From an uncultured bacterium (GTDB taxonomy: Bacteria > Krumholzibacteriota > Krumholzibacteriia > LZORAL124-64-63), in the NCBI GenBank assembly GCA_903912525.1, contig CAIWHK010000007.1, positions 22,563 through 86,562 on the forward strand: a stretch of DNA of 64,000 nt, given 5' to 3'. The notes beneath the pieces were generated by a model. The model saw only the letters and a list, made by a program, of their open reading frames with translations. It had not been told where the DNA came from and searched no databases. Positions 42,942-61,272 of this stretch are shown here, piece after piece (positions within the stretch are counted from its first letter, which is position 1; every line of letters starts with the position of its first letter). The translations under genes and the position numbers were made by a program.

Positions 42942-43547
42942 CTACGCCGCCCGCCCGCGCACCGCCGCCCACTCGCCCGACGACTTGATGCGCTTGAGGC
43001 TGCGCGGGCCGTGTGGCTCGCGCGGGGTAAGCATCTGGTCGACGCGCGAGATGAAGTCGCGGCGCGCCGCGTGGAACTGGTCGAGGTGGCGCGGCGCCAG
43101 GCAGCACCACTTCGACTCGACGACCTTCTTCTGGAACAGCGACATCAGCACGACGCGCAGGTTCAGCTCGTCGAACGGGGCGCGGAAGACGGGCTGCGTG
43201 CCGCGCGCCTCCCAGTCGGCGATGGTCTCGCGGCGGCTGCGGCCGATGGCGGTGGCGAGGTCTTCCTGGGACATCCGGTAGAGGCTGCGCAGGTAGGCGA
43301 TTTCCTCGCCGGTCAGGCCGGGGCCGCTCAGGAGGATGACCAGGCCGAGGTAGTCCATGAGTTGCACTTCGTTGAGGATCATCGAGGTACCTTGGCCGCA
43401 CTTGTCACACTCGGTCAATTCGACCGCGTTTCCCTCGAGAAAGACGCCGGTCAGGCCGCAGTGGTCGTACTCGTATCGCGCGGGGTGTTCAAAGCGGGCT
43501 TCCGGGGAGCCGCAGAGGGGGCATGTTCGCGTTCCGGCCAACTTCAC
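42942..43547 (-). CDS. MqsA-like regulator (YgiT-type zinc finger plus Xre-type HTH), orphan antitoxin-like
   Basis: N-terminus CPLCG...CDKCG Zn-ribbon followed by an HTH (MSQEDLATAIGRSRRETIADWEARG). The stop lies next to REP 42910-42929. Confidence 0.6.
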   Translation of the reverse strand: MKLAGTRTCPLCGSPEARFEHPARYEYDHCGLTGVFLEGNAVELTECDKCGQGTSMILNEVQLMDYLGLVILLSGPGLTGEEIAYLRSLYRMSQEDLATAIGRSRRETIADWEARGTQPVFRAPFDELNLRVVLMSLFQKKVVESKWCCLAPRHLDQFHAARRDFISRVDQMLTPREPHGPRSLKRIKSSGEWAAVRGRAA

Positions 43548-43892: not shown

Positions 43893-44909
43893 TTGCTCCC
43901 CGAGATTCCCGACGGTTATCCACAACTGCTCGACGCGCTAAAGGCCCGCATCAGGGAAGCTCGGGTCCGAGCGGCTTCAAGCGTCAACAGCGAGTTGATC
44001 GCGCTCTACTGGCAGATCGGTCAGGAGATCCTTCTGCGCCAGAGGGAGGCCGGCTGGGGATCAAAGGTGGCTGACAGACTGTCAGGAGACCTTCGGAGTG
44101 CATTCCCCAACATGAGAGGCTTCTCGAAATCCAACCTCATGTATATGCGCAAGTTAGCGGCTGCGTGGCCGGCCGGGACAATTTTCCCACAGCTTGTGGG
44201 AAAATTGGCATGGGGCCACAACCGCCTCCTCCTGGACAAGGTGGGGGATCCGGCCGAACGGTGCTGGTACCTGCAGGCCGCCATCGAACACGGCTGGAGT
44301 CGCGATGTCCTCCTGCACCAGATCGAGAGCGGGCTTTGCAACCGACAAGGCAAGGCGATCACGAACTCTGAGCGGGCATTGCCACCGCTGCAATCGGAAC
44401 TCGCGCTGGGCTTGTTGAAGGACCCGTACAACCTCGAATTCCTCGACATGGGAAACGACTTCCGCGAACGCGAACTCCACCGCGGCCTGGTGCGGCACAT
44501 GCGGGACTTCCTGCTCGAATTGGGCTCCGGATTCGCGTTCGTGGGCGACGAGTACCATCTGGAGGTCGGCGGCGCTGACTTCTTCATCGACCTGCTGTTC
44601 TATCACGTCCGTTTGCATTGCTATGTCATCATTGAACTCAAGCCCGGCGAATTCCGTCCGGAACATGCCGGCAAGCTCGGCTTCTATCTTTCAGCGGTCG
44701 ATGACCTGCTGCGCCTGCCGCCGGATGGGCCCAGCATCGGGCTTGTGCTCTGCCGCGAGAAGAACCGCGTTGTGGCGGAATACGCCCTGCGCGAGATCAG
44801 CGCCCCGATGAGCGTGTCGGGCATCACACTGAAGAAGAGCCTGCCGGATGGCCTGCGTGCCAGCCTGCCGACCGTGGAGGAAATCGAATCCAGGCTGCGC
44901 GAATCGTAG
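43893..44909 (+). CDS. YhcG-family (DUF1016) PD-(D/E)XK nuclease, paralog 3
   Basis: IIELKPGEF PD-(D/E)XK motif, LAWGHNRLL, HGWSRDVLLHQI. TTG start. Contains the internal AT-rich palindrome 44181-44205. Confidence 0.75.
   Translation: MLPEIPDGYPQLLDALKARIREARVRAASSVNSELIALYWQIGQEILLRQREAGWGSKVADRLSGDLRSAFPNMRGFSKSNLMYMRKLAAAWPAGTIFPQLVGKLAWGHNRLLLDKVGDPAERCWYLQAAIEHGWSRDVLLHQIESGLCNRQGKAITNSERALPPLQSELALGLLKDPYNLEFLDMGNDFRERELHRGLVRHMRDFLLELGSGFAFVGDEYHLEVGGADFFIDLLFYHVRLHCYVIIELKPGEFRPEHAGKLGFYLSAVDDLLRLPPDGPSIGLVLCREKNRVVAEYALREISAPMSVSGITLKKSLPDGLRASLPTVEEIESRLRES
44181..44205. repeat. AT-rich palindrome ATTTTCCCACA-GCT-TGTGGGAAAAT inside the YhcG paralog 3 CDS (encodes TIFPQLVGKL)
   Basis: 11-bp arms that are exact reverse complements, in a GC-rich gene, at the codon position homologous to the palindromes in paralogs 1 and 2. 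Confidence 0.75.
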
Positions 44910-44911
44910 GC

Positions 44912-44931
44912 GACTTGCGCCGGCGCAAGTC
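44912..44931. repeat. REP-like palindrome GACTTGCGCCGGCGCAAGTC (perfect)
   Basis: 3 bp after the YhcG paralog 3 stop. Confidence 0.85.
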
Positions 44932-44943
44932 CCGCCCATCACC

Positions 44944-44975
44944 AAAGAAAACCCCGGCCGTCACCAGCCGGGGCT
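44944..44975 (-). terminator. Rho-independent terminator for the M6 protease gene (minus strand)
   Basis: Stem CCCCGGC-N8-GCCGGGG followed on the minus strand by TTTTCTTT. Confidence 0.5.
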
Positions 44976-45012
44976 CCCCCAAGACACTTCTTGACCGGCC
45001 GACCGCTCCGGC

Positions 45013-48000
45013 TCACTTCACCAAAGCCAGCCTCCGCACCCACTCGCCGCCACCGGTCACCAACCGGCACATATAACTGCCCGACGCCACAGGCCGGCCG
45101 CGATCGTCGCGTCCGTCCCACACCGTCGTGTGCCGGCCCGCGACCTGTTCGCCCGTGATCAACGTCGTGACGCGGCGGCCGTCCAGGGAGTACACGGCCA
45201 GTTCCACCGTGCCGGCCGTAGCCAGGTCGAAGGCGATCGTCGTCGTGGGATTGAACGGGTTGGGATACGGCGCGCCCAATGCCGTCACCGACGGCACGAC
45301 CGACGGTTGTGCGACATCGCTGGCCACGTTCTGGTCGATGGTGAGCACGCGATCGCCCGCCACGTTCAGGCGCACGGTGGTCGTGCCGTCGGGCCAGCGC
45401 ACGACGACGCTGTCGGCCGTCGTCGCGGCGCCCAGACCGAAAGCAACGCGCAACGCGTTCTGCGCCAGGCTCTCGCCGCCGGCCGAAACGTGGCGCAGCT
45501 GGGAAACTCCACCGACGACGCACCAGACGCGCGCGCCGATGGCCGCGATGTTCGTGCCCTTGCCCTTCAGGTCCAGCTGCAGCCAGTGGCCACGACCGCT
45601 GATGGTATTGCGCAGCAGGACATTCGGCTGGCCGTCGCGCGACAGGTACAAGTCCTGGCCGCCGTCGCCGTCGAGGTCGCCGCAGGCGACGGCCGTGGTC
45701 GCCCCCTGCGCCGCGGGCAGCAGCTGCGACACGCCGAACTGGCCGGCGTCGGCGCCGAACAGCAGCAGGTCGGGCTCGCTGAAGCGGCAGACGTAGATGT
45801 CCAGGCGGCCGTCGTTGTCGAAGTCGGCCATGGCGAGGCCGCGGCCCGATCCGGTGTCGCCCAGGCCGGGGCCGGTGAGCGTGGTCCAGTACGTCCCGTC
45901 ATTGCGATAGAGGACGTCGGCCGAGCCGTCGTTGACCAGGTAGAGGTCCAGGTCGCCGTCGTTGTCGACGTCGCCCCAGGCCGCGGCCTGGCCCGAGCTG
46001 CCGTTGGCCGCCTGGCCCGTTACGAGGAACGTGCCGCCGCCCCCGTTCTGCACCAGCTGGTTCGCCTGCCAGGACATGACGCGGTAGACGTCCAGGTCGC
46101 CGTCGCCGTCGTAGTCGGCCCACGGCGCGGCGGTGCCGGTGCCGGCTGTCTGCAGCGCGGCGATGGCCTGCGGCATGAAGAAGAACTGCCCCGTCCCGAT
46201 GTTGCCGTACGAGCGGGCGAGCATGCTCGCCGTGCCGGTGTTGACCAGCGAGAGGTCGAGCAGGCCGTCGCGGTCGTAGTCGCACCACGCCGCGGCGCGG
46301 CCGGCGCCGGCGTCGTCGACGCCGTACTGCGCGATGTTGGTGAACGTGCCGTTGCCGTTGTTGGCCAGCAGCTGGTTGGCCTGGCCGTCGCGCGACAGGT
46401 AGACGTCCTGGTCGCCGTCGCCGTCGAAGTCGCACCACGCGGCGGCCATCGTCAGGCCGGTGTCGGTCAGCAGGCCGGTGGCGATGTCGGTGAACGACAG
46501 GTTGCCGTCGTTGCGCAGCAGGCGGTTGGCCGAGCCGCGGTTGCAGATGTAGAGATCGAGGTCGCCGTCGGCATCGTAATCGAGCAGGCTGACGCCGCGG
46601 CCCGCGCCCGCATCGCCGAGCGCGCCGGCCGACGTCGCGGTGAACGGCGCGTTCGTGTGGACGCCCGTGAACGCGAGCGCCGCGCCGCTGGTGGCCACGG
46701 TGCCGGTCACGACGGCCGGTGACGGCGAGGTCCAGCCGGGCACGCCCAGCCAGGTCAGCGTGAACAGCCCCGGGGCCCAGACCACCACCGAGGCGTCGCC
46801 GACGCCCGTCTCCTGGTAGCCGTCGGGGCCGTCCAGCCGCCACGGCGCCTGCAGGCCCGCGGGCTGAACTGCGATGTTGACGGCCAGCGAGCCGACCGCC
46901 GGACGGTAACTGAACGTCATGGTCGATGCGCTCGCACTGATCTGGTCGATGTACACGGGCGCGACGGAACCATTCCACCACCTGGCGGCCGGGCTGGTGG
47001 CAGGCGTCAGCAGCGTGGAGCCGGGCGCGGACCACAGGTCGGTATAGTCGCCGTAGTTGAGGTAGTACTCGAGATCCCAGCGGCCGTCGGCCTGGACCAG
47101 CGTGCAGTAGTAGTGCCGCGCCGCGGTCATGTCCTGGTAGCTGTTGTTGCCGGACGTGTCGACATGCCAGATGGCCAGGCCCGCATCGGGAAGCGCGGCA
47201 TCGCGGCCGGCCTGCTGCCGGTTCTCGATCATGTAGTACTCGCCCGAGCGCGCCGGGTTGGAGACGCGATAGAAATGGTTGCTGCCGGCGGTGACGGGCA
47301 GGTTGGTGGCCACGCTGGTCAACGCGGTCACCGAGGCCGACCAGCCGGCCGTGTCCTTCAGCGGCGCGCAGGGCTGGACGGGATTGTTGGCCGGCCCCGA
47401 ATTGCACATCAGGCAGAACTGCCCCACGCCGGACGAATCGGAATCGTAGTCGTACAGGTCGGGCCAACCGCAGAGCATGTGACCGTTCTCGTGGCAGAAC
47501 GTGGCCAGCGAGGGCCCCGAGCCGATGTTCGTGATCTGGTAGCGGTAGGTCGAGACGCCGTCCGCGGAATACGAAATGCTGCTGCTGTGCGGCCACAGGC
47601 CCACCGACCAGCCCATGGACGGCTCACCGGCATAGAAGGCGTTGAGGGCGTCGATGACGCCGTCGTGATTGCTGTCGTACTGGCTGTAGTCGAAGCCGCT
47701 GTTGTTCAGCGCGATGAGCGCCTCGCGGATCAGCGCGCGGGCACTGGTTCCATAGGTCTGGGATGCGCTGTCGTAGTACGACTTCGGCTGGGCGGCCCGG
47801 TAGTAGACCGTCGGCGAGAAGTTCGTGTACGTGAGCAGGCCGCCCGACACGTCGTAGAAGTAGTCGCGCACCGAGCCGTGGCTGCTGTAGCCCGTGTAGC
47901 CCGGCAGGTTGAGGTAGGCGTCGAAGTCGGCGGCGGCAATCGTGGCCGGCTGGTCGCTGAAGTCGATGAGCAGGGTGATGCCGCGCACATTGCCGACGGT

Positions 48001-48429
48001 CGTGGCCTGCGTGGCCTTGTTCGCCGCGGGGATCAGTGCCCGCTCGGCGTCGAGCAGCTGCCGCGCCGCCTGGGCTTGCTTCTGCCGCGCCAGCGTCGAC
48101 TGCTTCAGGTGGGGCGTGAGCCCGAGGCCCGCCATCGCGGCGGCATCGCCGGCGCGGACACCGGTGCTCTGGAGATCGTCGCTGCCATTCACGAGCCGCG
48201 CGTAGCAGATCACGCCGGTGCCCGCATCGCGGACCAGAGTGAAGCCGTCGAGCGATTCGATGTGCTGCGAATACTCGTCGCCCCAGACCAGCACGGGCAC
48301 GGCGGCGCCGTCGGGCTGCCGCAGGTCGAAACGGGCGCCGTGGTAGGGGGCGGCGGTGGCGGCGGAGGCCAGGAGGAGCGACAGCGCCAGGGTGACGGGG
48401 GCGGTGAGCCGGGCGAAGTGGCGGAGCAT
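45013..48429 (-). CDS. Secreted M6-family (immune inhibitor A-like) metalloprotease with FG-GAP/VCBS repeats and T9SS C-terminal domain
   Basis: Signal peptide MLRHFARLTAPVTLALSLLLASA; HExxH in FCHENGHMLCGWPDLYD; repeated DxDxDGxxD FG-GAP-like motifs; C-terminus YPNPFNPTTTIAFDL. Confidence 0.75.
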   Translation of the reverse strand: MLRHFARLTAPVTLALSLLLASAATAAPYHGARFDLRQPDGAAVPVLVWGDEYSQHIESLDGFTLVRDAGTGVICYARLVNGSDDLQSTGVRAGDAAAMAGLGLTPHLKQSTLARQKQAQAARQLLDAERALIPAANKATQATTVGNVRGITLLIDFSDQPATIAAADFDAYLNLPGYTGYSSHGSVRDYFYDVSGGLLTYTNFSPTVYYRAAQPKSYYDSASQTYGTSARALIREALIALNNSGFDYSQYDSNHDGVIDALNAFYAGEPSMGWSVGLWPHSSSISYSADGVSTYRYQITNIGSGPSLATFCHENGHMLCGWPDLYDYDSDSSGVGQFCLMCNSGPANNPVQPCAPLKDTAGWSASVTALTSVATNLPVTAGSNHFYRVSNPARSGEYYMIENRQQAGRDAALPDAGLAIWHVDTSGNNSYQDMTAARHYYCTLVQADGRWDLEYYLNYGDYTDLWSAPGSTLLTPATSPAARWWNGSVAPVYIDQISASASTMTFSYRPAVGSLAVNIAVQPAGLQAPWRLDGPDGYQETGVGDASVVVWAPGLFTLTWLGVPGWTSPSPAVVTGTVATSGAALAFTGVHTNAPFTATSAGALGDAGAGRGVSLLDYDADGDLDLYICNRGSANRLLRNDGNLSFTDIATGLLTDTGLTMAAAWCDFDGDGDQDVYLSRDGQANQLLANNGNGTFTNIAQYGVDDAGAGRAAAWCDYDRDGLLDLSLVNTGTASMLARSYGNIGTGQFFFMPQAIAALQTAGTGTAAPWADYDGDGDLDVYRVMSWQANQLVQNGGGGTFLVTGQAANGSSGQAAAWGDVDNDGDLDLYLVNDGSADVLYRNDGTYWTTLTGPGLGDTGSGRGLAMADFDNDGRLDIYVCRFSEPDLLLFGADAGQFGVSQLLPAAQGATTAVACGDLDGDGGQDLYLSRDGQPNVLLRNTISGRGHWLQLDLKGKGTNIAAIGARVWCVVGGVSQLRHVSAGGESLAQNALRVAFGLGAATTADSVVVRWPDGTTTVRLNVAGDRVLTIDQNVASDVAQPSVVPSVTALGAPYPNPFNPTTTIAFDLATAGTVELAVYSLDGRRVTTLITGEQVAGRHTTVWDGRDDRGRPVASGSYMCRLVTGGGEWVRRLALVK

Positions 48430-48545
48430 GGGTACGTCCCGTGGTCGATGGTGGCGGTGCCGGGTGTGTGAGGGCCGGTGGGGATGACAATAGTGCATTA
48501 TAACGCGTTTGGGGGTGATGGATCTACAGAAATGAGGGGGTGCGC

Positions 48546-48565
48546 CAGTTGCGCCGGCGCAAGTC
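48546..48565. repeat. REP-like palindrome CAGTTGCGCCGGCGCAAGTC
   Basis: Between the M6 protease start region and the YhcG1 stop. Confidence 0.8.
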
Positions 48566-48591
48566 CCCCGCACCGTAGTCGCAATTTATAA

Positions 48592-49690
48592 CTACCTCAG
48601 CCGCCCCCGAAACGCCCGCTGTGACTTGAGGATTTCCTGCCGCAACGCTTCCGTGTCCGGCAGCATGGTCAGGTAGCGCGAGGCAAAGACGTTGGCGGCG
48701 ATGCCGCCCATCGCGTAGTGGACGACGGCGTCGTTCTTGGCACTGCAGAGGATCAAGCCCACCGGTTCGTGTTCGTCGGGGCCCATGAGGTGTTCGCGGG
48801 CGTAGTTGAGGTAGAGGTTCATCTGGCCGGCGTCGGCGTGGCTGAACTTACCAAGCTTGAGGTCGACCACGACCAGGCAACGCAGGGCGCGGTGGTAGAG
48901 CAAGAGGTCGATGCGATACCACTCGTCGCCGATGCGGATGCGCTTCTGGCGGGCCACGAAGGTGAAGCCGGCTCCCAGTTCGAGCAGGAACGATTCAAGG
49001 TGGCGCACGATGGCGTCCTCGAGGTCGGACTCGCTGTACTCGTCCTTCAGGTCGAGGAACTCGAGGAGGTAGGGGTCGCGGATGTGGTCGCGCAGGGCGA
49101 CGGCATCCGGCGGGGATGGCTTCCTGGCGGACGTGAGCATGCGTTCGGGGTTGGACGAGGCCGAAACGCGCTCGAAGAACTGGGTGCTGATCTGCCTTTC
49201 CAGCTGCCGGACAGTCCAACCGCCGCGAATGGCTTCAGCTTCGTAGAGCGCGCGGGCCTGGGGGTCGCTGACAGACATCAGGCGGATGTAATGGGTCCAC
49301 GACAGGGGGAAGGAATGATGCATAACTGACGCATTTGCAGGCAGTTGTAATTTTACCATCACTGATGGTAAAATCTGATGACTGAGATAAAAAGATCTCA
49401 TTTTGTAAAGACTGGTCGGCGAGAACCCGCGCCCATGCTGGCGGGCCAAGTCGCGCCCCAGCCGCTGCAGCAACTCTTCCCCGTAGATGGCCCGCGGGTT
49501 TCCGTCCTGCTCGAATTCGACGATTCGCCGGCCAATCTCCCAATAGGTCGACACGATGACGCTGCTGGTCGTGCGCACCACGACGCGCCTGGCCTCGTCG
49601 ACCAGGCCGGAGATGCCGACATCAACTCACTGTAGGGCTCCGCACCAGCGGGGCCGGACATCGGCGCGGGGATCCCCGCGTCTTCAGACT
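48592..49690 (-). pseudogene. YhcG-family (DUF1016) nuclease paralog 1 with a -1 frameshift near the N-terminus
   Basis: The body 48592-49581 is intact (VVDLKLGKF PD-(D/E)XK motif). The N-terminal segment MVRKRKSEDAGIPAPMSGPAGAEPYSEL is in another frame; alignment with paralog 2 DNA shows a single-base deletion in copy 1. Contains the internal palindrome 49350-49374. Confidence 0.65.
49350..49374. repeat. AT-rich palindrome ATTTTACCATCA-C-TGATGGTAAAAT inside the YhcG paralog 1 CDS (minus-strand sense encodes QILPSVMVKLQ)
   Basis: Perfect 12+1+12 palindrome embedded in coding sequence. Confidence 0.8.
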
Positions 49691-49969
49691 TTCGTTTCCT
49701 GACCATGATTCCCGTCCCAATCTGCCGGATGTGCCGACGCGGTCCTGATGCCAACGTGGGTTCACGGATGCGGCGCGACGTGTCGCGGACGATATGCGCC
49801 TGCGGGACAACGTCGTGGCGAAGGTGCTGTCTGCGACGAACCGCACGCAGGGCACCAAACGGGCCGTTCCTGTGGAGTTGCACGGGTTGCGCGATGACGC
49901 CAATGGGGCAGCCACGCACGCATTCGCGGTGGCTATAGGGCAGGCGGCGGGCCAGATGGTGAATGAGGC

Positions 49970-49989
49970 AACTTGCGCCGGCGCAAGTC
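49970..49989. repeat. REP-like palindrome AACTTGCGCCGGCGCAAGTC
   Basis: Cassette array; followed 45 bp later by the AT-palindrome 50027-50060. Confidence 0.8.
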
Positions 49990-50026
49990 GGGCCCGTTAC
50001 CGGGCAACTGATTGCTGTTTTGCGAC

Positions 50027-50060
50027 TTGGAATTCTGCCAACAGTGTTGGCAGAATTGGG
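50027..50060. repeat. AT-palindrome family copy TTGGAATTCTGCCAACAGTGTTGGCAGAATTGGG (intergenic remnant, 45 bp downstream of REP 49970)
   Basis: Perfect 11+1+11 core with family-conserved flanks TTGGAATT...AATTGGGCAA. Minus-strand translation RFFAVLPNSANTVGRIPS resembles a YhcG N-domain segment. Confidence 0.75.
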
Positions 50061-50200
50061 CAATACAGCAAAAAATCGCTCATTGGGTGGGTCGCGCAAA
50101 GCTGGTGTCCCCACCGATCTCTCCTTCCCCCAGGGAGAATTCAGCCTGGTATTAGCCGTATCGCAGTATGAATGTCCTCCGCGCTTGTCCGCCGAGGCTC

Positions 50201-50220
50201 GAGTTGCGCCGGCGCAAGTC
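50201..50220. repeat. REP-like palindrome GAGTTGCGCCGGCGCAAGTC
   Basis: Cassette array; upstream of the HTH-ImmA gene. Confidence 0.8.
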
Positions 50221-50256
50221 CTGACGCTACGACCGCCCCGCATGGGCGTGTATTCT

Positions 50257-50277
50257 GATAAACCTTTTAGGTTAATC
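50257..50277. promoter_or_regulatory. 21-bp near-perfect palindrome GATAAACCTTTTAGGTTAATC about 75 bp upstream of the HTH-ImmA gene; candidate operator
   Basis: Inverted repeat AACCT-TTT-AGGTT with symmetric flanks, in an AT-rich promoter-like stretch. Confidence 0.35.
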
Positions 50278-50351
50278 TTTCTTGGCGGCGATATCCGATC
50301 TGCATATACTCATTGAAGGCCGTACCTGCCTGGACTTCATCGGGGACTACC

Positions 50352-51434
50352 ATGACTGACACCCACGCATTCACGCCAAACTGGGCCTCTCCCCCCGGCA
50401 GTACGATTGCCGACCTGCTGGCCGAGCGCAGCCTGACCCAGGCGGACCTTGCCGACCGCACCGGCTACACGCGCAAGCACATCAACGAACTGGTGCGCGG
50501 CCGCGCGGCGATTTCGTTCGAAGCGGCCCTGAAGCTGGAGACCGTGCTGGGCTCGACGGCCGACTTCTGGATGCGCCGCGAAGTGCAGTACCGCGAGGCG
50601 CTGGCACGGCAGGAGCTCAACCGGCAGTTCAAGGCCTCGGCGCCCTGGCTCAGGCGGATTCCACTGGCAAGCATGGTGCGGCTCGGGTGGGTGGAGCGGT
50701 TCCCTGATTCCGGGCAGCAGGTGGCCGCCTGCCTGCGGTATTTCGGCGTGGCCACGGTCGAGGCCTGGGAAGCGACGTACGCGGAACCCCTGGCGGCCTT
50801 CCGCAGGTCACCCAACGCCGAGACGGCCGGCGCGGCGGCCGCAGCCTGGCTGCGACAGGGCGAACTGCAGGCGGCCGCCATCCGGACCGGGGACTACAGC
50901 GCGTCCGGGTTGCGCGCGTGCCTGCCCCGACTGCGGCAGCTCACGCTGCTCACCGACCCCGACGCATTCGTACCCGCACTGACCGGCATGTGCGCGGAAG
51001 TGGGCATCGCCGTCGTGTTCGTGCCCACGCCGCAGGGATGTCCCGCCTACGGCGCCACGCGGTGGCTCTCTCCCACCAAGGCGCTGCTGATGCTCAGCAA
51101 CCGCACCAAGACCCACGATGTGCTGTGGTTCACCTTCTTCCATGAGATCTGCCACCTGCTGCACCACAGCAAGAAGATGACCGTCATCGAGGGCGGCCGG
51201 AGCCTGGACGCCGGCCTCGAGGAAGAGGCCGACACGTTTGCCGCCCACATCCTGATTCCGCCGGCGGACGCGCGCCGCATCGAGGAATTGCCCCGCAACG
51301 CGGATGCCATTGCTTCGTTCGCCCGTGAGATCGGGGTTGCGCCGGGGATCGTGCTGGGGCGGATGCAGAAGATGGGGCTGATCGGCTGGTCCAGGTGTGG
51401 GGAGTTGAAGGTCAGGTATGAGATCGGCGGGTGA
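50352..51434 (+). CDS. Xre-type HTH fused to ImmA/IrrE-family (COG2856) metallopeptidase domain (HigA2/ImmA-like)
   Basis: N-terminal HTH (LTQADLADRTGYTRKHINELVRG); C-terminal FFHEICHLLHH HExxH motif typical of ImmA/IrrE. Confidence 0.75.
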   Translation: MTDTHAFTPNWASPPGSTIADLLAERSLTQADLADRTGYTRKHINELVRGRAAISFEAALKLETVLGSTADFWMRREVQYREALARQELNRQFKASAPWLRRIPLASMVRLGWVERFPDSGQQVAACLRYFGVATVEAWEATYAEPLAAFRRSPNAETAGAAAAAWLRQGELQAAAIRTGDYSASGLRACLPRLRQLTLLTDPDAFVPALTGMCAEVGIAVVFVPTPQGCPAYGATRWLSPTKALLMLSNRTKTHDVLWFTFFHEICHLLHHSKKMTVIEGGRSLDAGLEEEADTFAAHILIPPADARRIEELPRNADAIASFAREIGVAPGIVLGRMQKMGLIGWSRCGELKVRYEIGG

Positions 51435-51440
51435 CCTGGC

Positions 51441-51460
51441 CACTTGCGCCGGCGCAAGTC
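51441..51460. repeat. REP-like palindrome CACTTGCGCCGGCGCAAGTC
   Basis: 7 bp after the ImmA stop; followed by the AT-palindrome 51497-51530. Confidence 0.8.
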
Positions 51461-51496
51461 CGGCCGGATCGCGCCTAAGCGATTGATTTCCCGCTC

Positions 51497-51530
51497 TTTG
51501 GAATTTTATCATCACTGATGAGAATATTGG
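51497..51530. repeat. AT-palindrome family copy TTGGAATTTTATCATCACTGATGAGAATATTGGG
   Basis: Imperfect arms (2 mismatches); 37 bp downstream of REP 51441. Confidence 0.7.
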
Positions 51531-51546
51531 GCAACGCCGGCAGGCC

Positions 51547-52182
51547 CTACCGATAGCAGTCATGGAACCACTCGGGTCCAAGCCGGATGAACGTGTTCAC
51601 GGCAGCCGCGAGTCTCGCACCGGGCGCCGCACTGGCCGCCAGGACCCTCTTGCCATGCGCCCGCACAGCATCGACGGCTGGCGTGAAGTCGCCATCGGCC
51701 GACAGCAGGTACGCGGTATCGAATTCGTCGCGCTCGGCCATCACGACCATGTCGACGGCCAGAAAGACATCAACGGCTTTTTCGACATAGGCCGTGGCAC
51801 GCATGTTCCGCCGCGCGATGTCATACAGGTCCCGGTAAACCTGCTGGTCGATGCGCGTGGACAATGTCGTGAGATAGTCCTTGAGTTCCCTGGCCGCGTT
51901 GTCAGTCACCGGGCGTGACTCGAGGCGCCCGAAGTGCACGCTGATCTTCGGCGACGATGCCCTGAGAGCGGCAATGAACCTGCGCTGGGCCGCATAGAGT
52001 GCCAGACTGCTTCGTTGCTCGACCTGGCCTACGTAGTACCTGGTGGCGCACCACTGCCGCGGCCCGACGAGCTTGCGCGAAATCACCCCATAGTCGAGCC
52101 GACCCAAGTCGGCGATGCCATGCTGCTTGGCGCCGTGATACCAGTTGTTGCCATCGATGAAGAGCACTGCGCGTTCAGCCAC
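51547..52182 (-). CDS. NYN-domain (LabA-like) predicted RNase
   Basis: VLFIDGNNWYH and VDVFLAVDMVVMAERDEFDTAYLLSADGDF motifs. Probable GTG start. A deleted version of this cassette is present at 55110-55320. Confidence 0.6.
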   Translation of the reverse strand: MAERAVLFIDGNNWYHGAKQHGIADLGRLDYGVISRKLVGPRQWCATRYYVGQVEQRSSLALYAAQRRFIAALRASSPKISVHFGRLESRPVTDNAARELKDYLTTLSTRIDQQVYRDLYDIARRNMRATAYVEKAVDVFLAVDMVVMAERDEFDTAYLLSADGDFTPAVDAVRAHGKRVLAASAAPGARLAAAVNTFIRLGPEWFHDCYR

Positions 52183-52194
52183 GGCGCCGACCCA

Positions 52195-52236
52195 AAAGAA
52201 AAACCCCGGCGTGTGGCTGAGCCAGACCCCGGGGGG
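52195..52236 (-). terminator. Terminator-like hairpin plus T-run (minus strand) immediately upstream of the NYN gene; same element as 55215-55260
   Basis: CCCCGG-cgtgtggctgagccagac-CCGGGG stem followed on the minus strand by TTTTTCTTTT. Confidence 0.35.
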
Positions 52237-52675
52237 ATAAAACACCCGGTCCCGTGGGATCCGAGCGACCCGCAGTATACACAGGGCTGGGCTGCCGTGT
52301 CAACTGCAGTGGCGAAGCGCTAAAGAAGAGCCCTCCGGGGCGCCACCAGAAGGGGGTCAACCGGCTCAGCAAGCCGGGCTGGGGTTGATACGCATTCAGT
52401 TGCGATCTGATCGCGGGGCGGGTCAAGGGCGATTCCCTCTTTGGCGCTGGAGTGGGCCGGCGCGGTCGAGAATGCAAGGACCCCGCCCGGCGGCGTCCTT
52501 GTCGCTGCGCCAGTGCACAAGTAGTCGCGCAACTGCCGCGTCGTTTGCGCGTCATGACGGCCAAGTTCCGAAAGCCCCCGGGCGAGGTGCCATGCACCTT
52601 GCGAGCCCACCGCAAATACATGTCATGCTCCGTTGACAGCTTCATGGGAGATGGCGCCCGCCGTCTTCACTTGCC

Positions 52676-52695
52676 GACTTGCGCCGGCGCAAGTT
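52676..52695. repeat. REP-like palindrome GACTTGCGCCGGCGCAAGTT
   Basis: 14 bp downstream of the YhcG2 stop. Confidence 0.8.
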
Positions 52696-52708
52696 CCCTA
52701 CCCCCACG

Positions 52709-53824
52709 TCAGCGCAACCGCCCCAGAAACGCCCTCTGCGTCCGAATGATCTCCTGCCGCAGCGACTCCGTGTCCGGCAGCACCGTCAGGTAGCGCGAGG
52801 CGAAGACGTTCGCGGCGATGCCGCCCATCGCGTAGTGGACGACGGCGTCGTTCTTCGCGCTGCAGAGAATCAAGCCCACCGGCTCGTGCTCGTCGGGGCC
52901 CATGAGGTGCTCGCGCGCGTAGTTGAGGTAGAGGTTCATCTGGCCGGCGTCGGCGTGCGTGAACTTGCCGAGCTTGAGGTCGACCACGACCAGGCAGCGC
53001 AGCGCGCGGTGGTAGAGCAAGAGGTCGATGCGGTACCACTCGTCGCCGATGCGGATGCGCTTCTGCCTCGCCACGAACGTGAAGCCGGCGCCCAGTTCGA
53101 GCAGGAACGATTCGAGGTGGCGGACGATGGCGTCCTCGAGATCGGACTCGCTGTACTCATCCTTCAGGTCGAGGAACTCGAGGAGGTACGGGTCGCGGAT
53201 GTGGTGCTGCAGTTCGGCGGGGTCGACAGGCGCGGGCTTGCGCGCGGCGGCGAGCATGCGGTCGGGGTTGGCGGACGCGGTGACGCGCTCGAAGAACTGC
53301 GTGCTGATCTGGCGGTCGAGCTGGCGGACGGACCAGCCGGAGCGGATAGCTTCGGATTCGTAGAGGGTGCGGGCGGCGTGGTTTTCGACGGACATCAGAC
53401 GGACGTAATGTGACCACGAAAGGGGGAAGGAAATGGGCGTAACTGACGACTCATCAAGTGTTTGTAATTTTCTCGACACTGTCGAGAATATCTGCAATTC
53501 CAGATAAAAACATCTCATTTTGTAAAGTCCCGGCCTGGAGAATCCCCTGCCGTATCGGCTGGACAGATCGCGCCCCAGACGCGTGAGCAACTCTTCGCCA
53601 TACTCGGCGCGGACACGCCCACCCTGTTCATATTCGACGATTCGGCGTCCGATTTCCCAGTACGCCGACACGACGACGCTTTGCGTCGATCGCACGACAG
53701 AGCGCCGGGCCTCTTCCAGTAGGCCGGAGATTCCCGTCACCAGTTCTCCGTAGGGCTCCGCGCCGGATGCACCGGACGTCGGTGCGGGGACCCTCGCGTC
53801 CCGAGGCTTTCGATTCCTGGCCAT
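52709..53824 (-). CDS. YhcG-family (DUF1016) nuclease, paralog 2 (intact)
   Basis: About 88% protein identity to paralog 1 across the body; contains the internal palindrome 53467-53492. Confidence 0.7.
   Translation of the reverse strand: MARNRKPRDARVPAPTSGASGAEPYGELVTGISGLLEEARRSVVRSTQSVVVSAYWEIGRRIVEYEQGGRVRAEYGEELLTRLGRDLSSRYGRGFSRPGLYKMRCFYLELQIFSTVSRKLQTLDESSVTPISFPLSWSHYVRLMSVENHAARTLYESEAIRSGWSVRQLDRQISTQFFERVTASANPDRMLAAARKPAPVDPAELQHHIRDPYLLEFLDLKDEYSESDLEDAIVRHLESFLLELGAGFTFVARQKRIRIGDEWYRIDLLLYHRALRCLVVVDLKLGKFTHADAGQMNLYLNYAREHLMGPDEHEPVGLILCSAKNDAVVHYAMGGIAANVFASRYLTVLPDTESLRQEIIRTQRAFLGRLR
53467..53492. repeat. AT-rich palindrome AATTTTCTCGACA-C-TGTCGAGAATAT inside the YhcG paralog 2 CDS (sense encodes QIFSTVSRKLQ)
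   Basis: 1 arm mismatch; same codon position as in paralogs 1 and 3 but a different half-site sequence. Confidence 0.8.
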
Positions 53825-54087
53825 GCTTCCCATTCCCATCTGCCGGATGTACCGACGCGGTCCAGATGCCAACGAGAGTTCACGGAAGAGGCGCGATGTG
53901 TCGCGGGTGATGGGCGCCTGCGGTGCGACGTCGGGGATGAATCATTGCCGACGACAAACCACATTCGCGGCGCCAATCGAGCCTTTCCTAGGGAGATGCC
54001 GGCGCTGGGCGGCGGCGCCGATTAGGCGGCCACGCACACACAGCGATGGCCATTGAGGCAGGCGGCAGGCCAGATGGTGAACGTGGC

Positions 54088-54107
54088 GACGTGCGCCGGC
54101 GCAAGTC
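54088..54107. repeat. REP-like palindrome GACGTGCGCCGGCGCAAGTC
   Basis: Cassette array; followed by the AT-palindrome 54145-54177. Confidence 0.8.
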
Positions 54108-54144
54108 AGCCCGATTTCGGCGCAAACAGTTGTCGCGGCGTGAC

Positions 54145-54177
54145 TTGGAATTTTACCATCACTGATGGTAAAATTGG
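54145..54177. repeat. AT-palindrome family copy TTGGAATTTTACCATCACTGATGGTAAAATTGG (intergenic remnant)
   Basis: Core identical to the YhcG1 internal palindrome. Flanking 30 bp on both sides align to the YhcG1 3' end and to the YhcG1 sequence next to its palindrome, so this looks like an internally deleted yhcG copy. Confidence 0.75.
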
Positions 54178-54400
54178 CCAAAACAGAAAACAATCTCACA
54201 TCAAGCAACATCGGCACGCACTGCTGCGCGCTACCGCGAGGCCGTGAACACACATCCAATCGGTGCCGCCCTGGCGAAGAACGCGCCCCTGTGCCCACTC
54301 CTGGCGGCGCTCCCAGCCGCCCACCTCAGAACGCCGGACCAAGCAGACCGGCCGATCCGGGCACAACTGCTGCCTACAAATGGTCGCGAACCGCCGCACC

Positions 54401-54420
54401 GACTTGCGCCGGCGCAAGTC
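54401..54420. repeat. REP-like palindrome GACTTGCGCCGGCGCAAGTC (perfect)
   Basis: Cassette array; followed by the AT-palindrome 54457-54490. Confidence 0.85.
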
Positions 54421-54456
54421 GACGGCCTTCGACATAACTGGTTCCAAAACAATCAA

Positions 54457-54490
54457 TTGGAATTTTCCCGACAGTGTCGGGAAAATCTGA
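54457..54490. repeat. AT-palindrome family copy TTGGAATTTTCCCGACAGTGTCGGGAAAATCTGA, about 45 bp upstream of the AbiEi-like gene 54534
   Basis: Perfect 11+1+11 core. Confidence 0.75.
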
Positions 54491-54533
54491 CGGCAGGCAC
54501 AGCCCTGCACATAACTAAATCTTGGGTTAAGTT

Positions 54534-55127
54534 TTGTGCATGGACACCAAGACACAAAGCCACCGCGCCGGCCCCAGCTGGGACCAGCTCTACGAAACCG
54601 CTGCCGCCCAGGCCGGCCACTTCACGACGGCCCAGGCCGAGGCCGCGGGGTACTCGCCCCAGCTGCTGGCCAAGTACCTGGCCAACGGGCGTGTGGTCAG
54701 GGTGCGTCGCGGCGTGTACCGCCTCACCCATTTTCCGGCGGGCGAACTCGAGGAGTTCGCCGTCGTGTGGCTGTGGAGCGAGCGGGCCGGGGTCTTTTCG
54801 CATGAGACGGCGCTGTTTCTGCATGGGCTGTCCGATGCGCTGCCGTCACGAGTCCACCTGACGCTGCCCGCGGATTGGCGTCGGCGAAGGCTGCGCGTAC
54901 CGGATGGCGTCGCGACGCACTTCGGCGAGGTGGCCGGTGCGGATCGCGGCTGGGTGGGCCCGGTGCCTGTGACCGCTGTTGCGCGGACGCTCGTCGATTG
55001 TGCGGAGGCCGGGGTTGCGCCGGAGATGGTGCGCGATGCCATGGAGCAGGCGATCGAGCGTGGGATGATTCGCAAGGGATCAGTGCCGCGACTTGCGCCG
55101 GCGCAAGTCCGGCCGGATCGCGCCTAA
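54534..55127 (+). CDS. AbiEi-like (COG5340) antitoxin/regulator, orphan; C-terminus encoded by a REP copy
   Basis: WDQLYETAAAQAGHFTTAQAEAAGYSPQLLAKYLANGRVVRVRRGVYRL winged-helix N-domain typical of AbiEi. The last residues LAPAQVRPDRA are translated from REP 55090-55109. Confidence 0.5.
   Translation: MCMDTKTQSHRAGPSWDQLYETAAAQAGHFTTAQAEAAGYSPQLLAKYLANGRVVRVRRGVYRLTHFPAGELEEFAVVWLWSERAGVFSHETALFLHGLSDALPSRVHLTLPADWRRRRLRVPDGVATHFGEVAGADRGWVGPVPVTAVARTLVDCAEAGVAPEMVRDAMEQAIERGMIRKGSVPRLAPAQVRPDRA
55090..55109. repeat. REP-like palindrome GACTTGCGCCGGCGCAAGTC (perfect)
   Basis: Forms the 3' end of the AbiEi-like ORF 54534-55127; followed by the AT-palindrome 55147-55180. Confidence 0.85.
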
Positions 55128-55145
55128 GCGATTGATTTTCCGCGC

Positions 55146-55320
55146 CTTGGAATTTTATCATCACTGATGAGAATATTGGGCAAAGCCGATCAGGTCCTGG
55201 CGATATCAGCAATGGAACCACTCGAGGCCAAAAGAAAAACCCCGGCGTGTGGCCAAGCCAGACCCCGGGGGGATTAAGGTGCCCGGTCCCGTGGAATCCG
55301 AGCGGCTGTAAGTATAGCCG
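55146..55320. other. Deletion derivative of the 51441-52300 cassette: REP, AT-palindrome, about 25 bp of NYN 3' end, then the terminator hairpin; the NYN ORF is precisely missing
   Basis: 55090-55205 aligns to 51441-51565 and 55206-55320 aligns to 52190-52300, with about 640 bp absent in between. Confidence 0.6.
55147..55180. repeat. AT-palindrome family copy TTGGAATTTTATCATCACTGATGAGAATATTGGG (duplicate of 51497-51530)
   Basis: Part of the duplicated cassette 55090-55320. Confidence 0.7.
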
Positions 55321-55357
55321 ATGCCCAAATGCCGCAGCAACTCCCACCGCCGACTGA

Positions 55358-56152
55358 TCACACATCGCCTTCCTCCACGCCCCCCACCAGTCCCACCGGC
55401 ACGATCAACCGCCACCTGCGGACGAGTCGGCCTCCGCGCGCGCGGTCGAGGTGCACCGGCTGGGCCGGCAGCAGCGACTGCAGGCTGGCCAGGGTCGCGT
55501 CGGGCACGGCCAGTTCGCGCTGGCGGGTGTCGAGCAAGAAGCCGACCCTCGACGCGAGCGTGCGGTTGGCGAGGACGCGGACGTACGCGAGCAGCGCGTC
55601 CGGGTCGATGGCCGGGATCGCCATCAGCGAGCGCCACACCTCGTCGAGGCCGCCGGCAATCGATGGCCGGTCGAGAACGTCGGCCACCGTGCGCTCGAGG
55701 CTGGTCACGCGCACTTCGAGTCCATTGCGGTCCAGGACGTCGATCCACGCCTGCTGCGGGTGGCGCGCGCGCAACTCGCACCGCGGCTGCACCGGCGACA
55801 GGCGGCGGCCCCGGAACGTGGCGGCACGGGCTCGCGTCCAGGTGATGAACGTGAAATTGTCGGACAGGCTCTGCGCACAACCGTGCGCCTCGAGCGCCGT
55901 GTGGTAGGCGGCGGCCGCGTCCGGCGCCATGCGGGCGGCCAGCGCGATGTAATCGGGGGTTGGCTCCCAGGGCTCCGTTGACCCCGGCGGACGACCGACA
56001 TACAGGCCGCTCTTCACGCGCAGCAACCGGCCCTGGCGTACCCAGCGGGCGAGGTGGGCATCGACGGTGGCAGGAGCGCGACCGGGGAGCGCGGCGATCA
56101 GCTCGTCGCGGGTGAAGAGCGGGGTCGTGGCCAGGAAGTGGTCCGGCTTCAT
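55358..56152 (-). CDS. AbiEi-like (COG5340) antitoxin/regulator, orphan
   Basis: MKPDHFLATTPLFTRDELIAALPGRAPATVDAHLARWVRQGRLLRVKSGLYV N-domain typical of the family; GGGAGG RBS. Confidence 0.5.
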   Translation of the reverse strand: MKPDHFLATTPLFTRDELIAALPGRAPATVDAHLARWVRQGRLLRVKSGLYVGRPPGSTEPWEPTPDYIALAARMAPDAAAAYHTALEAHGCAQSLSDNFTFITWTRARAATFRGRRLSPVQPRCELRARHPQQAWIDVLDRNGLEVRVTSLERTVADVLDRPSIAGGLDEVWRSLMAIPAIDPDALLAYVRVLANRTLASRVGFLLDTRQRELAVPDATLASLQSLLPAQPVHLDRARGGRLVRRWRLIVPVGLVGGVEEGDV

Positions 56153-56162
56153 GTTAGTGCCT

Positions 56163-56194
56163 CCCAATATTTGCAATTTATTACAAATTATGGG
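56163..56194. promoter_or_regulatory. Imperfect 32-bp palindrome CCCAATATTTGCAATTTATTACAAATTATGGG overlapping RBS/5' UTR of the AbiEi-like gene 55358-56152; candidate autoregulatory operator
   Basis: Inverted repeat immediately upstream of the start codon. AbiEi proteins are known to autoregulate through inverted repeats. Confidence 0.35.
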
Positions 56195-56294
56195 CGTCTA
56201 CAACAACGGTGTCGCATGGCCGACCAGCCGCCGGTCCCGGTTGCAGGGCGCCGCCACGAAACACAACGGGCCCCAGTAGGAGCCCAGGGCCTGC

Positions 56295-56314
56295 GACTTG
56301 CGCCGGCGCAAGTC
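56295..56314. repeat. REP-like palindrome GACTTGCGCCGGCGCAAGTC (perfect); last copy in the window
   Basis: Followed by the AT-palindrome 56351-56384. No copies are found in the lower-GC island beyond 56.7 kb. Confidence 0.85.
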
Positions 56315-56350
56315 CCCCCAAACGCAGCATAAACGACGACTCTTCAGCCG

Positions 56351-56384
56351 TTTGTAATTCTCCCGACAGTGTCGAGAGAATTGG
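56351..56384. repeat. AT-palindrome family copy TTTGTAATTCTCCCGACAGTGTCGAGAGAATTGG
   Basis: 1 arm mismatch; 36 bp downstream of REP 56295. Confidence 0.7.
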
Positions 56385-56499
56385 ACCATACCGAAAGAAA
56401 TCCCACCCAGCCCACCTCGGCCGCGCCAGCTCGCTCCGCCGGCCACCACCACCCGGCCCGGCGAGCCCAGCGCACCCTGGCCGCACCCCCACCCACCAC

Positions 56500-56896: not shown

Positions 56897-57235
56897 ATGC
56901 CGGCGCGTAACGCCCAACAGCGCAGCCACAGTATCTACGTCATCGAGCTCGACAAAGCAGTTCTGCAGATCAAGCGCTTTCGCGAAGCGAATCCGGGCTA
57001 CAGGGAAGGGATGCCGTGCGTCTACGTCGGGATGACTTGCCGCACGCCGGAAGAGCGCTTCAGGCAGCACATTTCCGGCTACAAGGCCGCGAGGCTCGCG
57101 CATCGATTCGGGATACGATTGAAACCACGACAATACCGAGCGTTCAATCCCATGACCAGAGCCGAGGCAAAGTACATGGAAGTCGAAAAGGCGCGACGGC
57201 TGCGCAATCGGGGATATGGAGTCTGGCAGAACTAG
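56897..57235 (+). CDS. GIY-YIG nuclease-family small protein
   Basis: SIYVIEL and VYVGMTCRTPEERFRQH resemble GIY...YIG/R/H signatures. GAGGAGGG RBS. Local GC about 58%. Confidence 0.5.
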   Translation: MPARNAQQRSHSIYVIELDKAVLQIKRFREANPGYREGMPCVYVGMTCRTPEERFRQHISGYKAARLAHRFGIRLKPRQYRAFNPMTRAEAKYMEVEKARRLRNRGYGVWQN

Positions 57236-57284
57236 GCGACAGACGCTCCGGATCCCCTGGGTCGAACCCCCATAGCCGGAACCC

Positions 57285-58850: not shown

Positions 58851-58899
58851 ACAATTCCTTCCGTTCGTCCCGATAGGCGAACTGCTGCACTCCCAAAGA

Positions 58900-60570: not shown

Positions 60571-60849
60571 GACACAAGCACCTTCCAGAATTCTTGCTCA
60601 ACGCACCGTGGCATTCGACCCGATATCGCCTGAGTGGCGGCACGTCATTTGAGAAATACGCTCAAACTGGCTTACACCTAAGCCGCTTAGTTACTCATCT
60701 TACCGCGCCAACCCCACCGGCTTCAAGTCTAGCAATTCCAATGGACATCCAGATGGGGTATCCTGGCGTCCTCCTGGAACCGAACTCAATCCGATTTTGG
60801 CCTCAATCGTTGTCGGTGATGCAGACATGCGGCCCGACTGGAGAATTGG

Positions 60850-61236: not shown

Positions 61237-61272
61237 CTGAATTCAAGCCCGATACCGATAAGGACTAGTCTA

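Follow-up and report, generated by a model that had tools for sequence, protein, structure and literature searches.

Introduction

Short palindromic sequences feature in several described genetic systems, and here we compare these with an AT-rich palindrome that recurs inside and beside genes of the YhcG (DUF1016) family, and that we studied in a 64-kb stretch of DNA from an uncultured bacterium of the Krumholzibacteriota (contig CAIWHK010000007.1, positions 22,563 to 86,562; referred to as the window, and numbered from its first letter). The nearest known kinds are the repetitive extragenic palindromes (REPs) with their REP-associated tyrosine transposases (RAYTs), the attC sites of integrons, in-frame palindromic elements and homing endonuclease genes, and each of them differs from the YhcG palindrome in a defining feature.

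REPs and their paired form, REPINs, are short hairpin palindromes with covarying arms and lineage-specific variants, and they flank the gene of the enzyme presumed to act on them, RAYT, which is of the HUH (histidine-hydrophobic-histidine) Y1 type. The YhcG palindrome resembles them in all these respects. However, the enzyme linked to it is a putative PD-(D/E)XK nuclease, similar to NucS and Hjc, its copy number is tiny (3-9) and restricted to the gene's neighbourhood, and its master copies lie inside the open reading frame (ORF) of the enzyme itself, at a conserved codon position. The attC sites of integron cassette arrays are likewise conserved in structure rather than in sequence, and in the window, too, the sites separate small cassettes, here of the toxin-antitoxin (TA) and defence type. 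Yet the main window ORFs include no IntI gene, the gene orientations are mixed, and inspection revealed no R''/R' boxes (RYYYAAC/GTTRRRY), only a one-sided near match, ATTGGGC. Furthermore, while attC sites are imperfect stems of 55-140 nt with extrahelical bases, the YhcG palindrome has perfect arms of 12-13 nt around a centre of 1-3 nt and no extrahelical bases, hence no strand polarity.

Palindromic DNA that is tolerated in frame within protein genes, and that shapes the encoded peptide, is known from the Rickettsia palindromic elements (RPEs), and in-frame 'coding palindromes' have been described in protein-coding genes of Nematomorpha mitochondria (PMC6649704). Those, however, occur in many unrelated genes of one genome, whereas the YhcG palindrome occurs in a single family, in many phyla and at one position. 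Free-standing homing endonuclease genes offer a further parallel, as mobile nuclease genes without a recombinase whose empty allele keeps the site, a situation also seen at the gltD-nanQ locus of Escherichia coli; but the putative YhcG cleavage site is kept and even duplicated in occupied alleles, and it is also found inside the gene. Finally, operators inside coding sequence are known, such as lacO2 and galOI, which share with the YhcG palindrome the arrangement of sites upstream of and within an ORF, a few hundred base pairs apart. In the YhcG palindrome, by contrast, the central arm positions vary freely and yet stay complementary, and several variants coexist in one gene.

YhcG/DUF1016 itself is a very widespread, horizontally mobile and uncharacterised nuclease family and a candidate phage-defence gene, which PADLOC lists under PDC-S02, a class for a candidate single-gene defence system. 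Its genes are often found inside restriction-modification operons and mobile elements without a recombinase. In the full-text literature on DUF1016, YhcG, COG4804 or the palindrome sequences we found no description of the palindrome. We regard it with considerable confidence as an ancient DNA-level cis element linked to YhcG genes. A palindrome within the ORF, together with matching loose copies at island junctions, offers the first concrete handle on how yhcG moves or is controlled, and it is a clear case of DNA structure overriding protein coding across phyla.

The palindrome in the yhcG genes of the window

Three ORFs of the window combine the domains DUF1016_N and YhcG_C (PF17761 and PF06250), each passing both Pfam cut-offs. 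The first, g1 (43893-44909, + strand; DUF1016_N 1.3e-41, YhcG_C 7.8e-59), belongs to a subtype with the peptide IVQQxVGQL, which shares ~33-36% identity with the type of the other two. These, g2 (48592-49581, - strand) and g3 (52709-53872, - strand), are parts of a duplicated unit of 1.5 kb. The PADLOC scan, which among the three paralogues covered g1 and g3 only, matched both to PDC-S02 (6e-142 and 3.9e-128, respectively). For g2, an earlier note on this DNA had given a start at 49690, which turns out to lie in another frame: the homology to g3 runs on to ~49700, and the loss of 1 nt compared to g3, upstream of 49581 (region 49581-49700), breaks the frame from the homologous start codon. Judging from the alignment, this change in the 5' part probably leaves g2 as a pseudogene or with a shortened N-terminus.

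Each of these genes contains one AT-rich palindrome of 25-27 nt with 12-nt arms. It reads AATTTTCCCACA-GCT-TGTGGGAAAATT in g1, with a 3-nt centre (44180-44206; encoding IFPQLVGKL), ATTTTACCATCA-G-TGATGGTAAAAT in g2, with a 1-nt centre (49350-49374; encoding ILPSVMVKL; delimited by pattern search, DNA folding and codon analysis), and ATATTCTCGACA-G-TGTCGAGAAAAT in g3, again with a 1-nt centre (53467-53491; encoding IFSTVSRKL; pattern search and folding). As the earlier note had stated, the position is homologous between the genes: the first base of the fifth codon of I-x-P/S-x-x-x-x-K-L forms the centre in g1, g2 and g3 alike. The G+C content at third codon positions is 0.22-0.44 within the palindromes, compared to 0.78-0.83 elsewhere in each gene, and the codons TTA (g2, g3), GTA and ATA are confined to the palindrome in those genes where the palindrome uses them.

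A search of the window with the pattern ATTYT-N5-CA-N-TG-N5-ARAAT, allowing ≤2 mismatches, yielded eight matches, where 0.06 were expected; all are on one strand and between 49.3 and 56.4 kb, and six of them are intergenic. Overall, the palindrome has nine copies in the window, all within 44-56.4 kb and none elsewhere in the 64 kb. Their arm cores (CCCACA, ACCATCA, CTCGACA, GCCAACA and CCCGACA) differ in sequence, with complementarity kept. DNA folding predicts stable hairpins for seven of the nine copies, with energies between -7 and -14 kcal/mol (z between -4.3 and -6.4), among them that of g1 (-14 kcal/mol, z -6.1), while the copies at 51503 and 55152 have decayed (-1.9 kcal/mol).

Occurrence across the YhcG family

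Homologues of g3 number in the thousands, with 55-65% identity and across phyla. Between the motifs GFSxxxLxxMRxFY and FPLSWSH, these proteins have a linker of 46-111 residues, which comprises one to four units of the form I-x-Q/P-T-x-S-G/A-K/E/Q-x. For a survey of the family we used 80 YhcG loci from more than ten phyla, one genome per species, of which 71 have at least one palindrome within the gene (1-4 copies per gene). The family unit is a perfect or near-perfect palindrome of 25-27 nt, ATTnnnC(A/C)GAC(A)-n-(T)GTC(T/G)GnnnAAT; the genes, 91 kb in total, contain 107 palindromes, compared to 54 palindromes of any kind in the flanks, which total 1136 kb. The linker could be located in 47 loci from several phyla, and in 42 of these the distance from the GFS codons to the first unit is 54 nt. 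In the distant subfamily of the g1 type, the palindrome is found at the corresponding motif, IVQQxVGQ(I/L), and yhcG of E. coli K-12 contains three such palindromes in frame, whose arms measure 13, 16 and 18 nt.

Outside the genes, we found ten copies in 1.16 Mb of flanking DNA, compared to none in shuffled sequence, and all lie within ~3 kb of a yhcG match; E. coli genomes hold the palindrome in a median of three places. The palindrome thus occurs only in or next to yhcG. The arms of such solo copies equal those within the gene of the same genome at one surveyed locus (L060), in E. coli and in the window, where the copy at 54150 corresponds to that of g2. L060 has three copies that share the same arms: one precedes the yhcG match by 84 nt, another is within the gene, and the third follows the match at a distance of ~300 nt. 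In other phyla we also observed partial second yhcG copies or fragments that keep the palindrome, several kb from the intact gene (for instance at ~17100-17260 of L021 and ~2171 of L003).

Maintenance at the level of DNA

The earlier note had inferred from the window that the arms covary, and this is borne out across the family. In an alignment of 49 copies, 91.3% of the cells are paired, as opposed to 73% in shuffles, none of which (0/500) reaches the observed value; when the pairing partner is slid by 1-3 columns, the share drops to 23-42%. Ten of the 12 arm pairs vary on both sides. Conserved are the outer ATT/AAT and the inner GAC/GTC (C(A/C)GAC/GTC(T/G)G), and the 3-4 positions between them vary freely and stay paired, such that Watson-Crick complementarity is kept on both strands. 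A dimeric protein that reads duplex DNA would not by itself enforce pairing at these variable arm positions.

The encoded residues follow this complementarity, as seen in the peptides IFQTPSGKL, IWQTPSAKF, ICSTPSSKL, IAQTPSAQF and IFQTPSGIL, in which W is coupled with A-K, F with G-K, C with G-K and A with A-Q; in the variant ATATTCC..GGAATAT, lysine is replaced by isoleucine and the palindrome is kept. The covariation across 49 sequences, the amino-acid replacements that preserve arm complementarity and the use of rare codons support selection or maintenance on the DNA rather than on the peptide; the earlier note had proposed selection on DNA or RNA structure, or on a dimeric binding site, rather than on the peptide alone. 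Palindromy is general among DUF1016 genes (71/80 loci), but it is not the trivial consequence of the encoded peptide that the note had considered as an objection; with residues that vary as complementarity dictates, rare codons and a low third-position G+C content, we reject peptide-driven palindromy. The peptide I-x-Q/P-T-x-S-x-K-x is instead a by-product of the DNA, because the palindrome occupies a disordered linker of variable length in 1-4 tandem units. In the AlphaFold model of g3, the palindrome-encoded residues 128-142 of this linker accordingly have a predicted local distance difference test score (pLDDT) below 50.

Loose copies and the REP-like repeat

The six intergenic copies that the earlier note had counted are indeed present at 50-56.4 kb (50032, 51503, 54150, 54462, 55152 and 56357), two of them, at 51503 and 55152, in the decayed state mentioned above. 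Its longer template fits five of the six at ≤3 mismatches; the copy at 54457 departs from it on the right flank. Each copy belongs to a module on the - strand that also includes a GC-rich, REP-like repeat, with a constant spacing of 52-53 nt from the REP core to the start of the module. Module A (49969-50083; REP 49969-49989, palindrome 50031-50057, arm core GCCAACA) lies ~680 bp upstream of the palindrome within g2, and module C (54087-54201; REP 54087-54107, palindrome 54149-54175), whose palindrome is identical to that within g2, ~680 bp upstream of the one within g3. Module B (51440-51545; REP 51440-51460, decayed palindrome 51503-51527) is located directly 3' of a gene for an NYN-domain protein, and module E (55089-55195; REP 55089-55109, decayed palindrome 55152-55176) belongs to an internally deleted copy of this NYN cassette (55306-55091). 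Module D (54400-54500; REP 54400-54420, palindrome 54462-54486, arm core CCCGACA) lies ~50 nt upstream of an AbiEi_4 gene on the + strand, where TTGGAA-N18-GAAAAT is a possible promoter. Module F (56294-56400; REP 56294-56314, palindrome 56356-56382) has hybrid arms, CTCGACA / CCCGACA.

The similarity of the modules to yhcG extends over ~25-45 nt on each side of the palindrome only and is weak but real: in the 45-nt flanks, identity is 0.31-0.58, where the baseline is 0.27 +/- 0.07. Among themselves, the modules are 0.45-0.65 identical, compared to 0.35-0.49 with the genes. This closer mutual relationship, together with the fixed REP spacing of 52-53 nt, indicates that the six modules, as far as their alignment can tell, are one family of ~100 nt that was duplicated from a single ancestor, rather than the outcome of six independent events.

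Similar modules exist in relatives of the window organism (L001, L081/L092, L083 and L104). The flanks of module F are ~98% identical to those of its orthologue in L001 (4 differences/227 nt), where the arm core is GCCAACA; five of the nine differences between the two fall within 14 inner-arm positions (p = 3e-5). The order of the cassettes also differs between the window and L001. L104 contains a complete abiEi_4-abiEii pair (3216-4724) with the same palindromic module 54 nt upstream.

The GC-rich palindrome, GACTTGCGCCGGCGCAAGTC, is a REP-like genomic repeat and separate from the AT-rich one. It has 21 copies over the whole window (8828, 13998, 14618, 17601, 28249, 29187, 31084, 33275, 38619, 39307, 42914, 44916, 48550, 49974, 50205, 51445, 52680, 54092, 54405, 55094 and 56299), 11 of them outside the array of modules and cassettes, and most are at or near gene ends, including the position after each yhcG stop codon. 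The repeat can be written (G)ACTTGCGCCGGCGCAAGT(C), and some copies have longer G/C-rich stems, GGGGGACTTGCGCCGGCGCAAGTCCCCC. It thereby has the character of a high-copy, dispersed extragenic palindrome that is typical of REP/RAYT systems, which the AT-rich palindrome lacks; a RAYT gene was not found among the window ORFs scanned.

The gltD-nanQ locus of Escherichia coli

In E. coli, the gltD-nanQ locus occurs in at least three states. It is empty in strains M1/5 and CD306, in which a 67-nt spacer with one palindrome separates the two genes (gltD-pal-nanQ); strains 08_3323, 746 and HS-02 have yhcG only (gltD-yhcG-pal-nanQ); and K-12 has fimbrial genes in addition to yhcG (gltD-pal-[gltF yhcADEF yhcG]-pal-nanQ). 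In the K-12 segment studied (L093; NC_000913, 3358000-3372000), the palindromes are at 2633-2657, 10130-10240 (the three units within the gene) and 10971-10995. The first and the last are unannotated solo copies that directly follow the stop codons of gltD and yhcG, respectively, and bracket gltF-yhcADEF-yhcG. In many genomes, the megablast match of the left junction reaches exactly to the final base of the palindrome, or to the stop codon of gltD, and in genomes without yhcG that of the right junction begins at the nanQ stop. The locus has no AbiEi gene. Across the solo copies, we find positions between convergent genes and upstream of genes on the opposite strand.

The units within yhcG are likewise sites of change. 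An 80-nt deletion takes out units 2 and 3 in strain 08_3323 and in two-piece matches in O157:H7 and O111 strains, and one truncation class of yhcG stops inside unit 3. Outside a patch of ~180 nt around the units, the yhcG alleles of K-12 and of 746 or HS-02 share 96-100% identity; within it, the value is 38-76% (L093 10070-10245 versus L102 and L103). Judging by these alignments, the patch resembles a cassette that has been replaced, or is hypervariable, while the rest of the gene is conserved. Between 746 and HS-02, 8/77 palindrome positions differ, against 39/1243 elsewhere (p = 0.005), and both arms change together. Five arm variants (CGCC, CTCC, CTGC, GTGC and TTGG) are spread differently over five positions in different strains. 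Module F of the window and its L001 orthologue, with their changed inner arms in near-identical flanks, behave alike. Arm variants are therefore copied between positions, and structural variation concentrates on the palindromes. These island junctions, deletions and shuffled variants, all from outside the window, agree with the earlier note's proposal of recombination at the palindromes; the repeated site-specific deletion that it had envisaged is not supported. With three units and two loose copies in K-12, the question of how yhcG moves or is controlled is directly testable in the best-equipped model organism.

In E. coli B REL606 (L099 13125-13926), yhcG is truncated within the third unit and followed by the transposase gene of an insertion sequence (IS). 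The truncation point is common to many E. coli genomes (the class matching query positions 1-194).

Possible roles of the palindrome

The nuclease core of g3 finds its top structural matches in NucS/EndoMS (2vld and 5gke, E ~1e-5, TM-score 0.37-0.38 on the target). This agrees with Kosinski et al. (2005; PMC1189080), who reported profile links between YhcG_C and both DUF91/NucS and the Holliday-junction resolvases of archaea; a sequence search of the PDB gave no match. The reading that we tentatively prefer, as a serious possibility rather than a likelihood, is that the palindrome is a cis site able to form a hairpin or cruciform, which provokes recombination and is probably cut by YhcG's own NucS/Hjc-like nuclease. 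The palindrome would extrude as a hairpin or cruciform and be bound or cut by a structure-specific nuclease, for which the putative PD-(D/E)XK domain of YhcG would be the most likely candidate. Breaks would be repaired from other copies of the palindrome, and the repair would homogenise the arms, shuffle variants among the copies and insert, delete or reorder adjacent DNA. In the window, the six modules would be duplicated descendants of one ~100-nt piece of yhcG (the palindrome +/- 45 nt, plus a REP), which now separate small cassettes of the defence/TA type; the island has three yhcG paralogues and lacks a recombinase gene. One or more of the modules, namely D, would also lie within a promoter. 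We consider it doubtful, if conceivable, that YhcG goes further and constitutes a self-contained, recombinase-free system of mobility and diversification, whose predicted NucS/Hjc-like nuclease would cut the cruciform-forming palindromes that are present in its own ORF and remain where it has inserted. With these as portable, orientation-free homology or attachment (att) sites, yhcG and neighbouring defence genes would be inserted, excised, reordered and converted in many bacterial phyla, including at the gltD-nanQ hotspot of E. coli.

Several observations weigh against a recombination site cut by YhcG. The similarity of g3 to NucS is limited to the nuclease core, and the AlphaFold model is mediocre (mean pLDDT 63). 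The palindromes that flank the K-12 island are each perfect and mutually different, while a simple crossover at the centre predicts hybrids, and the blocks shared by the window and L001 end at module/REP regions, with ends that cannot be placed on the palindrome centre. Palindromes are also intrinsically fragile, through slippage and as IS targets, so that breakpoints there are no proof of a dedicated mechanism, and the covariation of the arms could stem from hairpin-templated (template-switch) correction instead of structural selection. Moreover, several tandem units in one ORF have no obvious use for recombination. Lastly, module D and its L104 counterpart are in the promoter region of abiE genes, which favours a regulatory role, at least for those copies.

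The last point leads to the main rival, a possible but rather unlikely one, according to which the palindromes are operators for a dimeric regulator (the N-terminal domain of YhcG or a neighbouring helix-turn-helix (HTH) protein such as AbiEi) that represses the toxic nuclease by looping or as a roadblock, while hairpin-templated correction keeps the sites symmetric. The conserved outer ATT/AAT and inner C(A/C)GAC/GTC(T/G)G are what such a protein would read, and the three identical-arm sites of L060 are distributed over the gene and both its flanks. Module D is placed between hexamers that resemble -35 and -10 elements, ~50 nt upstream of AbiEi_4, L104 has the same module upstream of abiEi_4-abiEii, and six of the eight promoter-like hits of the region are on the + strand at or beside palindromes. 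However, the variable cores differ even within one gene (CGCC, CTGC and TTGG in E. coli, three types in L010), and positions that are not read by the protein should lose complementarity unless a separate correction is invoked, whereas the central 3-4 arm positions are seen to vary with compensation. Only module D and the L104 copy are observed in a promoter, conservation of the -35-like flank does not reach beyond this clade, there is no AbiEi at the E. coli locus, and a static site leaves both the shuffling of variants between positions and the local hypervariability unexplained. A related candidate, a sigma-70 promoter (TTGGAA/TTGTAA-N18-TAAAAT, + strand) as the general role of the element, was rejected: it is plausible for a few modules of this clade, and because it is not conserved in other phyla, we retain it only as a local exaptation.

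The remaining alternatives appear less probable still. We think it unlikely that the palindrome is a selfish mini-element in the manner of REPs or RPEs, moved by another enzyme, with the YhcG linker as a safe harbour and the loose copies as transposed ones. The disordered, length-variable linker, the solo copies in intergenic DNA and the varying number of units among close relatives (1-3 in E. coli, 1-4 across the family) would fit such an element; but copies are confined to yhcG and its surroundings in the window as well as in the surveyed flanks, and to a median of three places in E. coli, the first unit is fixed at 54 nt after the GFS codons in nearly all loci with a locatable linker, palindromes recur at the corresponding IVQQxVGQ motif of the g1-type subfamily at ~33-36% identity, and no transposase is near among the main window ORFs scanned. 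Improbable, too, is the model of the earlier note, in which the intergenic copies are decayed yhcG genes without present function, each left by the same site-specific deletion of ~750 bp. It draws on the weak yhcG homology in both flanks and on the GC-rich palindrome that follows every copy as it follows the yhcG stop codons. Yet this supposed 3' end of the gene is the dispersed REP, with 11 of its copies outside the array, and its presence after both the stop codons and the modules gave the intergenic copies the appearance of ending with the 3' end of yhcG. Since the yhcG similarity extends to both sides of the palindrome, the palindrome is not a deletion junction, and the gene's 5' 280 nt are missing as well. 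The grouping of the modules with each other rather than with the genes, the fixed REP spacing and the persistence of orthologous modules in L001, L081, L083, L092 and L104 argue for one origin followed by maintenance. Least probable of all is a hairpin in the yhcG mRNA that controls translation, processing or stability, even though the position within the ORF is conserved, the stem is stable and the window copies are all in the orientation of yhcG. The 76 distinct units contain 62 mismatches, and those of the sense strand that G:U pairing could accommodate (12 G.T) are no more frequent than A.C (16), contrary to what an mRNA hairpin would lead one to expect. The covariation table, too, shows few G:U pairs, solo copies are found where neighbouring genes converge or upstream of genes on the opposite strand, and there is no Rfam match. 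The T-run and A-run flanks pair with each other, no U-tract follows the stem, and in a terminator scan of the window region none of the 14 terminator-like hits was the AT-rich palindrome itself. An intrinsic terminator, which would need a T-tract 3' of the stem, was rejected.

Other features of the window

The cassettes of the array are small genes of the TA/defence type in mixed orientations. They encode an HTH_3 and Peptidase_M78 (ImmA/IrrE-like) protein (50313-51434, + strand; also matched by PADLOC as PD-Lambda-2_B and RmrA-like), the NYN-domain protein (51547-52245, - strand; PADLOC HEC-09), and two orphan AbiEi proteins without an AbiEii partner, AbiEi_4 (54534-55127, + strand) and AbiEi (55358-56176, - strand), both recognised by Pfam and PADLOC. 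An MqsA-like protein is encoded at 42942-43547. A SNF2 helicase gene flanks the array on one side and a GmrSD gene on the other. Pfam scans of the 29 main window ORFs revealed no integrase or transposase domains, and no Y1_Tnp-type domain, as in HUH Y1 enzymes and RAYTs, was found in the window ORFs scanned with Pfam. Rfam 15 gave no matches at gathering score over the whole window, and ARAGORN detected no tRNA there, which leaves neither a known RNA family nor a tRNA-type att site. Exact-protein look-ups returned no strain variants of the source contig.

Between g1 and g2, a gene for an FG-GAP/ASPIC protein of 1186 residues with tandem coding repeats of 144-150 nt occupies 45013-48573. The related locus L001 lacks this gene, and of g1 it retains only 80 nt around the palindrome (L001 7370-7451). 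The second NYN cassette, at 55091-55306, is a remnant from which the NYN gene itself has been deleted: what matches the intact cassette is 80 nt at the beginning and 140 nt at the end (window 52313-51442; L001 3465-3542 plus 4153-4293). Beyond the array, the G+C content falls from ~0.66 to 0.55-0.60 at 57000-64000; this stretch, which holds an M48 peptidase gene and the GmrSD-type restriction gene (58900-60570), may be foreign DNA that adjoins the array.

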